Assembly (NCBI GenBank): GCA_964016885.1
Contig: OZ024740.1
Coordinates: 295,616,001-295,680,000, forward strand
Reading direction: 5' to 3'
From: Eledone cirrhosa
Lineage: Eukaryota
DNA: 64,000 nt
In this document: positions 612 to 38,630 of the stretch, in pieces
Numbering within the stretch: the first letter of the stretch is position 1
Layout: every line of letters begins with the position of its first letter
Notes under the pieces: generated by a model
Database searches by the model: none
What the model was told of the DNA's origin: nothing
What the model saw: the letters and a program-made list of their open reading frames with translations, nothing else
Translations under genes and position numbers: made by a program

Positions 612-813
612 AATTCACAAGAATCAAAGCTATGTTCAAAGCATTTATTCACTGTGAATTCACAAGTGAATAAATGCTTTGAACATAGCTTTGATTCTTG
701 TGAATTCTATATAACTGCTCTGTAGAACAACTGATGTTATTACATTGAGGTATTTATCTTACTGGTAATAAGGTAGTAATAAATTACTGTCTTTCACTGT
801 TTAGGATTTAAAA
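612..813 (+). mobile_element. Short fold-back insertion in (TA)n (family I)
   Basis: 42-bp inverted repeat 612-653 / 665-706; right arm continues about 105 nt further before the TA run; TA flanks on both sides. Confidence 0.6.
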
Positions 814-2511
814 TATATATAACTATAAAAAGTTTTAGTATATACATAACCATAAATAGTATCCTTAATATTATTACTTATATATATACATACTTATATT
901 TAAATAACAGCCGTACTAAGAGTGAGAAATGAAATTTCGTTTCATTTTTTCCGTTTATATATATATATATATATATATATATATATATATATATATATAT
1001 ATATATATATATATATATAAACGACCCAGCATCTCATAGATCGCATGAAAACCTTTTGACAGTGGTGAAAAAAGAAAGGAATTGTAGAAGGAGGAAGAGA
1101 AAGAGAGGCGGGAAAAAGAAAATATTCATAGACACCATCCAAATCTTTAGCGGAGACCCCGTGATATAGCAAGCAGCCGCGGCAGATACGGAATACTTGT
1201 GCAGAATATATCAGGACAGTACCTCTACGACTCCATCAGGACCTGACGCCTTAACTTATGTGCGTGTATATGTGTATGTATATGTTTGCGCGCGCGCCTG
1301 TCGTGGGTTTACTGTTGTTGCCCTCATCAAGCAGATTTATGAATAAAAAGAATTCCAGCCTCGACCATCACATCCTTTTTTTATTTGCAGGGGATCTAGG
1401 ATTACATTATCCAATGTGACTTGTTTTAAGACAGTATGGTAGGATTTGATGGAGATTTGGTTGTTATTTCTAGCGGGTCGAACAACCACATTGAAGCTCC
1501 CAACATGACAATAATCAAATGAGTGAAACCAATAAAATAATATAAACACATCAAAATATTTTAATGTATTTACTTATGTAGGTATTTACGCCTAGATATA
1601 CATGTTATTTTTGTCTGTATCAAATAGAAACTCAAATGTCTTATCTAACGACCATCTTATTACAGTCATATCATTAATTGCTATTTGAAGTTGATAGTTC
1701 TTTGTTCGACAGAAAACGAAATAAGGGGGAAATAAGGGGCTACAAAGACACTTAAAGCTTTGTTCCTCCAGCTCCCTTTAATCTATTTTATTATTGAAAT
1801 TATCTAAATACTACCTTTTTAATACCTCATTGAATATATACTATTTCAATTTATTTCGATCTTCGTTTCTTTTCATCATAATGTACAGATATTAGGAAGA
1901 AATATTTTAAATAACACTTCCGAAAAACACTTTTAGACATTTGTTTGCATTTACAAATTCTAAACTTCTAAACTTCAAATTATTCTCTCTGTAATGAAAT
2001 CCTACAGTAGATTATTCTCTAATTTATTTCGTTAGCTATTTACTTAAATGATAAAGAAGTAAATAGTTTGGTTGAGAGCCAGTTCAAATTTCATAGACAA
2101 GCGATAAATTATACAAAATAACTTGGATTGCATCCATATTATCTTCGTGCTGTGAATAAAGAAGGAAATAAACAAGCAAATAAATAAATAAAGAGATGAA
2201 TAAATAAATAAATAAATGCAAGCTGAAAAGAATTAAATAAAAAATATTCCAACAAAAAAATGAATGTGTTTACGTCAGATATGCTGTTTTTTTATTGCTT
2301 CGGGTTGTATTTGTGAGGTTAAAGAGTTTAGTTTTTGGTGTAACCTTCTAATGGATAGATTAGTTATATGATTTAGATTATAACTATTTAGTTTAATTTC
2401 ACGTATATCACCATCTCCACTCCCTATACCAACTACACGGAAAATACTCAGTTTCAGAGAAGTTATTTCTGTGAGACGAAAGGCGTCATATGTTTCTTAT
2501 GGGAAACGAAA

Positions 2512-2604
2512 CGTTGTTGTTGTTGTTGTTGTTGTTGTTGTTGTTGTTGTTGTTGTTGTTGTTGTTGTTGTTGTTGTTGTTGTTGTTGTTGTTGTTGTTG
2601 TTGT
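2512..2604. repeat. (GTT)n microsatellite
   Basis: Pure trinucleotide run; source of spurious polyQ/polyV ORFs. Confidence 0.95.
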
Positions 2605-36229: not shown

Positions 36230-38359
36230 GTGAAAAAGATGGAAGAACAAGGGAGCACCCTTTCTCTGTGCACCTGAGGAGAAGGGTTGCACACTTTCTC
36301 GGCGGTGTTTGCGACCCCCAAAACGCCTCCTCCCTATTGAGGACTTTATTGTTAATTTTATATTTGTTATTTGTTTTTTACTCGTTCTTTTGTGTAACCC
36401 CCCCCCTTGTATTTGTCCCCTTCTTTTGTGTACTCGTGGCAATAAATAGAAATTTATCTATCTATCTATGCATAATCAAAATTATAAATTTATATTTATA
36501 CCTACATATATTTTGGCAGAACATTTAAATGTATACGTGTATATACATGAATACATAGAATTTCAAATTTACATTTACATTGCTTTTATTATATCACGCC
36601 AGTTCAAAAGCGCGCTAAGTCATGACAATCTCATCATATGTTGGTCATATAATTCTAATACTATATTATCCAATGTATTGTAAGATATAACATTTTTTCT
36701 TGGGGCTGTAGGATGCAATTTAAGGGAAAATTGACTGTTATTCTTAGCAGGTAGAGTGATTATTAGCGACTCTTTGGCTCTTTTATGCATATATAGATAG
36801 ATACAACATGTGCCTAACCTATCAGAGGTAAAAAGAGAATTGCAACTTATATCATATATTATATAGAATATAGTTAATACATCTCGGTGTTTTTGTTGTT
36901 GTTGTTGTAAGCCTTTTAGCATCCTTCAAAGAGGATGTTAAAGAGTTATGGCCATTTTATCAAATCGAATCTAATAAAGGTTTTGTTACCAAAATCTAAC
37001 TACCGAATTATTTTCAATAAGGGTCTTATCTCTTATGTTTAGAAACATATTTGTTGCAAGCTGCCATATCATTTTTGTTTTCTATCTCCCATACGACTAA
37101 ATATGTAAGTAATCTACAGCAACTTTTACGTGGTCGACAGAAAAGCAAACAAATTTCTCTTAAATTACGTATAGCCATCTTTAAACATGATAAAATGGAT
37201 GATGTAGTCCGAGACACATTAGTCCTGAAAAAGAAAAAGGCTTGATGTTCATTATTTAAATATCTTTTCTCTAAATGGACACTCCTAATAACTATTTGAG
37301 GACTTCGGCCAAAAGAATGCTGTTGCAAATGACAGCCAAATATTTGACAATGGCTGGCACGAGAACCTCCTAAAGGACATGCCTGCATACAGATTTCGTC
37401 TGTATCTCATCTCTTAGATTGACAGTTTCCGGTCAATATGCTCTAACAAAGTGCTGTATCCAATACATACGCTCTCAACGGTGATGTACTTCAGAGTCCT
37501 ATTTTGACTCCTGCATTCTTACTTCTGTATAATTGCGTGTGTGTTTGCGAGCGAGAGAGAAAGAGAAAGAAAAAGAGAGAGAAAGAGAGTGAGGGGGGGG
37601 GGGGGGGAGTATGCGTGCGAGTTGGCAGCACTACCTGAACATAGAGTCCACTTAATAACTGGTGAATATGATATGACACCAAAGAGTCTAAAGTCTAAAG
37701 AGCCAACTGCTACTCGATCAGTGTTTACGTCTAACATAAATTGTTGTGAGCGACGTCTTTATTTTCCAACACTTTATTTATAGACTGATGTAAACATACC
37801 ATCTGTATATACAATACCTTTGTAGTCAGAAAAAAGAGAGATCAGCCCGATTAGTTTCAATCCTGTATTGAGACTATCAGCGACTGAGTACCATCTTTAA
37901 CCGCCTACACATTACTAACTACATACATACATACATACATACATACATACATACATACATACATACATACATACATACATACATAAATTCATACATACAT
38001 AATGGCTGCCCCCTCGTTATCGAGTATGGCCATTGCACAATATACCATTATTAACAATTATTAATTAATTCTATCGTGCAATGCCTGTGCGTAAAGATTC
38101 TTTTATAAAGACTGTGCACTGAGCCAATTCCATTCTCTGAGCGACAGTAGCTATAACCCGAAAAGAAGAAAGATCATCATCATCGGTAACTACTGAGCCG
38201 CAGGTTTTATGTCGGAGTTATCCCAGTTACATGAGTTGCCTTCTCCTAGAAGAATGCCCAGGTCTAACTGCGCAATCGAGTATCCAGCCCGATTATTTCT
38301 ATGTCCCCGCGCATATACATACACATGCATACAATATATATATATACATACATATATAT

Positions 38360-38630
38360 ATATTGTTATACTTTGGGAGGGTCATGTTGCCAATAAGAAA
38401 CACACACACCAGTTGCTTTCACTTCAATTTATTATAATAAATTTATAATAAATTTATAATAAATTTATAAATTTATAAATTTATTATAAATTTATTATAA
38501 TAAATTGAAGTGAAAGCAACTGGTGCGTGTGTTTCTTATTGGCAACATGACCCTCCTAAAGTATAACAATATCGGTTTCAACACACGATTTCAGATAAAG
38601 AATCTTGCTAAACAAATTCAGAAACGAAAT
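38360..38630. mobile_element. Small fold-back insertion of family B termini
   Basis: Inverted ~100-bp arms joined by slipped (aaatttat)n; left ends at TATAACAAT, right continues to CAGAAACGAAAT. Confidence 0.88.

Follow-up and report, generated by a model that had tools for sequence, protein, structure and literature searches.

We analysed a 64,000-nucleotide stretch of the Eledone cirrhosa genome (assembly GCA_964016885.1, contig OZ024740.1, positions 295,616,001 to 295,680,000), here called the window. It comes from an AT-rich animal genome of 3.0 Gb and is crowded with insertions in (TA)n, among them fold-back (inverted) copies of several families of Penelope-like elements (PLEs), here designated by letters. 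Each of these families has two sharp 3' ends, a short and a long one separated by a 'tail', and the two arms of an inverted insertion nearly always combine one end of each kind. In families of the Hydra type each end lies just upstream of its own copy of a small RNA hairpin (hairpin 1 after the short site, hairpin 2 after the long site). The insertions on which the argument draws are as follows, pLTR denoting the pseudo-long terminal repeat, ORF an open reading frame and RT reverse transcriptase.

613-878: fold-back of family I with a tail of about 165 nt; short arm at 613-659 (-), long arm at 660-878 (+)
717-750 (+): family I, hairpin 1, last base mutated in this copy
7343-7394: family D micro fold-back; short arm (-) and an 11-13 nt long-end remnant; absent from the first-pass list
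7497-8823: family B (Neptune-like) fold-back; long arm (-), short arm (+); hammerhead-like core at 8627; both ends inside the ORF, the short one by 24 nt and the long one by 84 nt
9408-10144: family N, asymmetric; left arm end at 9408, right arm continuing beyond 9707 into a second unit and crossing a mutated hairpin at about 9720-9738
13245-13368: family D fold-back; long arm tail-only, starting at the short site, with no real overlap
18454-21635: insertion of the Hydra-type family D; long arm inverted, at 18454-19456 (-), and containing hairpin 1 (18490-18537); main arm (+) with a 5'-truncated RT-endonuclease frame at 19489-20607, terminating at the short site
25419-25614: family H fold-back, centred on the putative hammerhead stem II region; hairpin 1 at 25540-25566 (+)
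25647-25924: family G fold-back, centred on a GATATC palindrome; hairpin 1 at 25719-25781 (-); long arm (-) with an internal deletion flanked by short direct repeats
25931-26215: family J fold-back; hairpin 1 at 26126-26149 (+)
38360-38632: family B fold-back; short arm (-), long arm (+)
38723-42528 (-): family E (Hydra-type) pLTR-ORF-pLTR with frameshifts and a long 3' end; upstream pLTR with both hairpins, at 42126-42200 (6 nt past the short site) and 42017-42035 (6 nt past the long site); 3' pLTR with hairpin 1 only, 38807-38881
42936-43215: family M; short+short mini-palindrome 42936-42973 beside a long-ended arm ending at 43215

A first-pass annotation, made from the letters of the window, had described fold-back insertions of at least six families in (TA)n. 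Self-comparison confirms each inverted repeat that it listed, and these are genuine inverted insertions at the places claimed.

Identity of the elements

The elements are endonuclease-bearing (EN+) PLEs, with RT and, at the C-terminus, a GIY-YIG endonuclease in one ORF, the motifs being read in the frames of families C, D and E. Relatives number 317 at E<=0.001, those listed being 657-852 aa long. Since searches of Pfam and the PDB gave no match for the window proteins, the domain names rest on motifs and on published Hydra sequences. The pLTRs are present in partial tandem, with an inverted 5' arm and an optional tail. A hammerhead ribozyme core with stem II was found by pattern in B and C only and was recognised by eye in D (with a variant core), G, H, I and J; Rfam gave no hammerhead at the gathering score and, by E-value, microsatellites swamp its results.

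The Hydra clade is characterised by RWK, DKT for DKG, a CxCX5C linker, and CxxC and CxH in the endonuclease (PMC8557442). Family D has CxCX5C, CxxC and CxH, its N-terminus lying outside the window; E has RWK, CxxC and CxH, with DKA for DKT and, in this decayed copy, without the last linker Cys. The Neptune clade is characterised by a DKG-type motif, a CX2-5CxxC linker and CCHH in the endonuclease. By eye, family C has DKSG, C-X4-C-X2-C (a linker common to Nematis) and the endonuclease Cys/His, and B is 63-65% identical to C over the C-terminal part. On motifs, we class C and B as Neptune-like and D and E as Hydra-type. Targeting of (TA)n is likewise found, and the units, 3043 nt in D and 3319 nt in E, are slightly above the <3 kb of the Hydra clade. 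Upstream of H, I and J, tblastn gave matches of 33-55% to endonuclease or RT fragments in 2, 1 and 3 loci, respectively. Family G has no protein match of its own and is assigned to Hydra by its hairpin only.

Short and long ends are paired

Beyond the window we sampled twelve blocks of 100 kb, two of them flanking the window and the others lying at round positions of six contigs, chosen regardless of content and so forming an unselected ('random') sample. To these were added 220 search loci, found with queries lying within the part common to both ends, except for one family B search across the long end. Together they cover about 2 Mb of 3 Gb, and ends were called by BLAST against single natural copies; the counts for families H and C rest on the random blocks and bystander loci.

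All nine PLE families are bimodal in end position, with two sharp 3' ends 40-165 nt apart. The histogram of TA-bounded terminal arms, which had been suggested as a check, is sharply bimodal rather than continuous, with 330 short, 345 long and 7 intermediate arms and one at a locus edge, and thus bears out the proposal of two fixed priming sites per family. In natural reference copies the tail is 60 nt long in B, 89 in D, 80 in H, 149 in G and 98 in J.

Among head-to-head pairs outside the window, 185 of 193 are short+long (binomial p 3e-45 against the 50% ceiling for independent ends), as are 64 of the 66 pairs in the twelve random blocks alone, so that same-end pairs do not occur at the frequency expected of independent insertions, the other outcome that the first-pass annotation had envisaged. 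The count of 193 leaves out the window pairs, the B pairs found by the long-end query (12 short+long, and one long+long, L013, which the automatic pairing missed), 7 pairs truncated by the edge of a locus and 10 in which an arm is intermediate or mis-aligned. Hairpin-bearing families contribute 145 short+long pairs out of 149, and B, C and F 40 out of 44. Either arm of an inverted insertion can bear the tail, and a de novo scan revealed many more families whose ends are asymmetric in this way.

The rule was also applied in the forward direction to full-length B copies, whose ends lie more than 4 kb apart: the inverted arm was classed first and the far 3' end then fetched. A classed inverted arm was available at 10 of 30 B loci (L363 being left out and L341 added via its arm end), and the far end was as predicted in 9 of the 10 (p 0.011). 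A short inverted arm was accompanied by a long 3' end in 4 of 5 copies and a long inverted arm by a short 3' end in 5 of 5. That short+long pairing is near-obligate is new here.

Several details given earlier for the window need correction. The family I tail had been put at about 105 nt with an end at 813, but the long end actually lies at about 875-878, giving a tail of about 165 nt; other copies cross the internal TATATA. Of two insertions listed as symmetric exceptions, that at 9408-9707 is no exception, since its right arm passes an internal TA run and extends to about 10144, within a second tandem unit; block b81 holds another copy with read-through like that of this family N arm. The other, 42936-42973, is a true short+short mini-palindrome, although the other five two-ended insertions of family M that were examined are short+long. 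That arms overlap does not hold as a general rule, a tail-only long arm being found in 33 of 165 tight pairs, for example at 13245-13368. A TAT/ATA at each end is seen, by eye, at most ends, but the short end of family E has only the T in common.

A hairpin at each end

The hairpin motif consists of RCTC, 1-7 inner stem pairs around a loop of 3-52 nt, the two-base bulge T(T/C/A) and GAGY, usually followed by ACT; written as RNA it is a bulged RCUC-stem-UH-GAGY-ACU. It begins 4-11 nt past the short site in all six families D, E, G, H, I and J. A second hairpin lies 5-6 nt past the long site in 7 of 7 read-through copies, all of which come from D, E and G and none from H, I or J. By chance the motif occurs at 47 of 20000 random positions and at 1 of 4297 positions after TA runs. 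Long arms have kept the hairpin in 165 of 209 cases (D 26/31, E 18/20, H 47/63, G 21/28, I 11/19 and J 42/48). By eye, about nine further families bear it; among the asymmetric repeats found de novo, which include known families and unrelated repeats, 24 of 72 have it.

Since the hairpin was found after the fact in this genome, we looked for it in independent sequences. Three of six published Hydra consensus sequences (PMC8557442, File S7) have it by eye: a sea-cucumber element has two hairpins ahead of the start codon, and two other consensus elements have one in the tail. A metagenome sample comprised 78 loci of Hydra-type proteins, from the best 80 of 542, which yielded 47 non-duplicate leaders. 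The hairpin was found in 42 of these, in 22 of them twice, against 0 of 141 ORF windows and 2 of 47 reverse strands, typically at about 120-165 and 65-100 nt upstream of the ORF. Of 15 repeat copies of these leaders, 12 stop just ahead of a hairpin (-1 to +4 nt), 4 at the first hairpin and 8 at the second; this count leaves out ORF-internal repeats, low-complexity matches, two loci without a recognised hairpin and copies cut by a contig end.

The inner part of the stem was scored without any pairing requirement. Its first three pairs covary, being complementary in 75/76, 51/72 and 34/44 cases, well above the means of 58.9, 28.5 and 18.9 over 2000 shuffles, in a count that ignores kinship among the sequences. 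Rows L438 and L455 of alignment A2, which had wrong coordinates, were left out. G-U pairs outnumber A-C pairs 44 to 15, one pair in family J being AU 18, GC 10, GU 7 and AC 1 times; because G-U exceeds A-C, it is the sense strand that would fold.

In Hydra-type families, then, each end is placed by the sequences 0-11 nt upstream of its own hairpin copy, an arrangement that is new here. The order of hammerhead, short site, hairpin 1, long site, hairpin 2 and ATG may be fixed in the Hydra clade. Many marine Hydra-type elements (L382-L459) also share hammerhead cores of the CGAAAC/TGAAAC type 60-100 nt upstream of hairpin 1. In searches of the literature on Penelope-like elements, twin priming, dimers, initiation sites, tails and self-priming we found neither a description of the hairpin nor a counted short+long pairing.

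Arm geometry, haplotypes and junctions

Geometry was analysed in 165 tight short+long pairs, which include those of the window and all B sets. The long arm is tail-only in 33, the short arm reaches farther 5' in 39, the long arm in 30, and both reach equally far in 63; arms overlap in 132 (80%), by up to about 1 kb. Because fold-back copying of a first cDNA yields only a short arm nested in a long one, 72 of the 165 pairs need two separate syntheses. This, together with microhomology at the junctions, upholds the earlier suggestion that two separately made cDNAs are joined head to head. Microhomology of at least 2 nt is found at 29 of 44 insert-free junctions (16% in controls), and of at least 4 nt at 12 of 44 (2.9% in controls).

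The overlap had also been held to imply two templates. The data do not support this: in the 108 pairs not picked by query, a test repeated with the query columns masked, partner arms differ at 8 of 530 diagnostic sites against 2687 of 5762 (47%) for non-partners and a background of 212 of 7868 (2.7%), and none of 48 informative unselected pairs is a mosaic. Partner arms carry one haplotype, with the same subfamily alleles. Single-site differences between partners (B -13, D -17, G -65, J -92) that resembled a two-template signal were rejected as query bias because the hit arm bears the query's allele and its partner the common allele; random-block pairs of D are concordant at the sites of partner difference.

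Equal 5' reach at pair-specific positions was seen in 17 of 74 pairs of B, D and E, as against 6.1 by permutation. This excess is compatible with a common template end, annealing at palindromes, or some fold-back. Long-arm 5' ends accumulate at the short site, 13 of them falling within 15 nt and 14 within the 45 nt that follow (p 0.008); the pile-up is modest, being weaker when compared with both flanks (p 0.11, or 0.03 without H). A search for collision of the main cDNA with the second primer in 30 full-length B copies gave no clear excess of 5' ends in the tail, where 4 fall within 60 nt, as against 5 within the adjoining 100 nt. An automatic scan of single insertions for micro-arms, which misses some divergent H copies and offers weak support at most, found 6 short+long-remnant, 4 long+short-remnant and 2 short+short cases, one doubtful long-arm call being among these. 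Target-site duplications are illegible in (TA)n, one B pair having a 7-12 nt repeat.

Two further observations concern the junctions of family B. Some full-length B copies (L364:1440-1500 and L350:1390-1450, oriented along the element) have two or three short stuttered repeats at the 5' junction, which suggests repeated abortive priming or template jumps. At L344 a family M arm runs straight into a B copy at M's GGAATTC palindrome, near the M short end, and this is either a chimeric or a nested insertion.

Proposed mechanism and alternatives

Programmed twin priming on a single RNA is, with some reserve, the origin that we consider probable for PLE insertions with two fixed 3' ends, each before a hairpin copy in Hydra-type families. 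Both hairpins of this RNA would be bound by a predicted protein dimer. Each subunit would take a hairpin and one of the nicked (TA)n target strands and would start a cDNA just 5' of its hairpin, with both nicks used in one event. The short+long rule would follow because there are two equivalent hairpins in cis, one per start site and one per subunit, and the tail length would be the hairpin spacing. From the downstream, long site the RT would cross hairpin 1 and displace the short-site cDNA; alternatively, it would stop early and leave a tail-only arm, so that tail-only arms and the modest pile-up at the short site would be failures of the long-site RT. The two cDNA 3' ends would then anneal or be end-joined and be filled in. 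PLE RTs are not known to have an RNase H domain. Five elements of the scheme are what we infer: the hairpin as a protein binding site, the dimer, the use of both nicks in one event, the displacement and the end joining. A dimer prediction for residues 1-490 of a Hydra-type relative scored 0.00, which is no verdict and was used neither for nor against. For the main arm of products with three pLTR copies, frequent among full-length B elements, a template longer than one unit or a jump between templates must still be assumed, as for any PLE tandem.

A number of observations weigh against programmed twin priming or restrict it. Eight of the 193 pairs have two ends of the same kind (4 short+short and 4 long+long), although the four of them with gaps >400 nt may be independent neighbours. 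Families B, C and F have no Hydra hairpin motif at their ends; they obey the same pairing without it and so would use other RNA signals. In B the two sites share seven identical bases (AATATCG). About 6 nt past the long site, B and C each have a 5-bp stem, the two stems differing by one compensatory pair; this is a lead only. The remaining three of the six published Hydra consensus sequences show no fitting hairpin by eye. In E and G (long-loop families) the minimum-energy fold contains hairpin 2 but lacks hairpin 1 in the form drawn, the two hairpin copies cross-pair in family D, and kinship may enter the covariation count. Extra or unaligned bases occur at 54 of 98 junctions. Among 96 single insertions that have a TA run close to their 5' junction, the automatic call finds no second arm in 84, so second priming often fails or leaves no visible trace. 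The overlap in 132 of the 165 pairs requires a putative strand displacement by the PLE RT of up to about 1 kb. Nor can a common haplotype tell one RNA from two RNAs of the same donor. In PAc, a Poseidon PLE of Anolis carolinensis whose nicking and extension involve both strands of the target (Frangieh et al. 2024, PMC11167929), no start-site difference between top and bottom strand was seen in bulk; this result gives no support, though it does not address pairing within one event. For the elements studied here the model is drawn from sequence.

Two RNAs, or two units of one tandem or circular transcript, might instead be the templates, one primed at the short and one at the long site and perhaps joined by hammerhead stem III. 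Such a course would dispense with displacement in long overlaps and agrees with the frequency of three-pLTR products in full-length B; PLE hammerheads with a palindromic stem III need dimers, and circular templates have been proposed (PMC4209133). Some H junctions fall at the stem III palindrome, and an F pair (L293, 2/9 sites) and a B copy (L360, four shared-allele differences) look mosaic. We nevertheless regard two templates as unlikely. No mosaic was found among the informative unselected pairs, and the allele differences that seemed supportive were query bias. As the hairpins share a consensus, two templates would have no reason to avoid same-end pairs, yet these are so few; tail-only arms abutting the short site fit one RNA; and hammerhead cleavage is dispensable for PAc in vitro (PMC11167929). 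The first-pass annotation had raised the possibility of pairing through stem III: some junctions do lie in hammerhead palindromes (H, G, D), yet nothing indicates RNA-RNA pairing.

Self-priming of the cDNA by fold-back after one priming event (proposed in PMC3846280), with the second end cut by the endonuclease at the other site (resolution of the tail by endonuclease being proposed in PMC8557442), would make the hairpins nuclease signals on single-stranded or extruded DNA. The 63 pairs with equal reach, the many palindromic centres, ends as AT-rich as the target, the nearly palindromic 3' half of the motif (GAGYRCTC) and the reported need of the Penelope endonuclease for the tail region (as cited in PMC11167929) all speak for it, and it may make part of the symmetric class. 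As a general explanation it is improbable, given that 72 pairs cannot be fold-back copies, that PAc RT start sites coincide exactly with genomic tail ends (PMC11167929), and that loops of 3-52 nt and G-U pairs argue against a site in duplex DNA. Hardly credible at all is that the pairing is inherited, a few palindromic donors being copied whole, or that independent neighbours in one (TA)n tract merely look paired: the tracts are indeed crowded with nested insertions and H junctions cluster in one region, but junction positions and sequences vary from copy to copy, H included, partners share a haplotype as independent neighbours would not, and independence caps short+long pairs at 50%.

Programmed twin priming can be put in a broader form, for and against which we see the case as evenly balanced. 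The Hydra hairpin would be conserved across animal phyla and would dock two RT-endonuclease subunits at fixed spacing, so that insertion would by design involve two strands and two RTs priming on one RNA. PLE tails and inverted pLTRs would in general stem from such priming, and the hairpin would be a portable start signal resembling that of telomerase RNA.

Other features of the window

8891-9135 (+): family G, single long-ended copy; hairpin 1 at 9001-9063
12470-12669: assembly gap, 200 N
26234-26912 (+): family F; non-coding unit of about 620 nt, partial tandem, long end; no Hydra hairpin
43688-44230: family F, short-ended copy; tail 40 nt
51317-59148 (-): partial tandem of the Neptune-like family C; open frame of 1217 codons at 51834-55487; 3' end short, at 51317

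Family C contains two adjoining units (51313-59148) that are 99.97% identical over 3708 nt, reflecting either a very young copy or an assembly duplication. In one unit the 1217-codon frame is unbroken and has a long Asn-rich insert, resembling the N-rich inserts described in rotifer Penelope elements (PMC3846280). The family apparently has two long ends about 13 nt apart (55393-55445; blocks b101, b121, up and down). Family F (also L271-L300) is young and forms head-to-tail tandems, with a CTGATGA core 16 nt before the short end and two or three variants of the long end a few bases apart; by sequence it appears retrozyme-like. Another abundant TA-bounded family (269-955; blocks b81, b111 and b161) has units of about 470-490 nt in tandem and inverted arrays and no Hydra hairpin. 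A SINE-like repeat of about 190 nt, in places in tandem, occurs at 16251-16464, 17909-18307, 29586-29777, 49169-49264 and 59721-59879, and a decayed LINE-like element with zinc-knuckle, endonuclease and RT fragments at 31404-36528 (+).

Comparison with known systems

Already known are the elements themselves, the tail at one end and, in one lizard PLE, two initiation sites. The published PLE insertion unit has an inverted pLTR and an optional tail of 30-40 bp at one end (Arkhipova et al. 2013, PMC3846280; Craig et al. 2021, PMC8557442). In the families studied here the tail measures 40-165 nt, either arm may have it, the one-end rule has been counted (96%) and, in Hydra-type families, the hairpin is duplicated at both ends. 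Between them, families D and E resemble the Hydra clade in the C-terminal GIY-YIG, RWK, the CxCX5C linker, YRDD/WFNPP, a length of about 700 aa and (TA)n targeting; the passages of Craig et al. (2021) on that clade mention no leader hairpins or paired ends.

The process works like L1 twin priming, in that the second target end would prime internally on the same RNA, the product is 5'-inverted and junctions have microhomology, but it is not the same. In L1 the first primer sits on the poly(A), the second site is not fixed, and the breakpoints nearly abut, with deletions or duplications of 1-10 bp in 32 cases (PMC11702581). Here both sites are internal and fixed and, in place of the non-overlapping arms of L1, 80% of pairs overlap, by up to a kilobase.

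The likeness to PAc lies in two internal start sites bounding the tail and an AT-rich target and, on our model, in the nicking and extension of both strands and a dimer such as was modelled for PAc: the PAc tail equals the distance between two internal RT start sites, which lie in an AC-rich stem-loop 111-118 nt into the ORF (PMC11167929). PAc differs in belonging to another clade and in having its sites in the ORF; those of Hydra are found in the leader, and each is followed by a hairpin of its own. The main text on PAc links no site to a given strand and leaves inverted arms unexplained.

The origin of PLE tandem and inverted repeats and of tails has been stated to be open (PMC8557442, PMC11167929). 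A near-obligate rule, with a defined cis-element of 20-30 nt at each start site, makes this origin experimentally testable, and the hairpin motif offers a practical marker of true Hydra-element ends for repeat annotation. If the broader form of our proposal is true, the tails and inverted pLTRs of PLEs would in general go back to programmed twin priming, and the hairpin would set the RT start on any RNA. The analogy is with the template boundary of telomerase. Telomerase has its sister group in the PLE RTs, and a template start set by an RNA helix would therefore bear on the origin of telomerase-type template definition.

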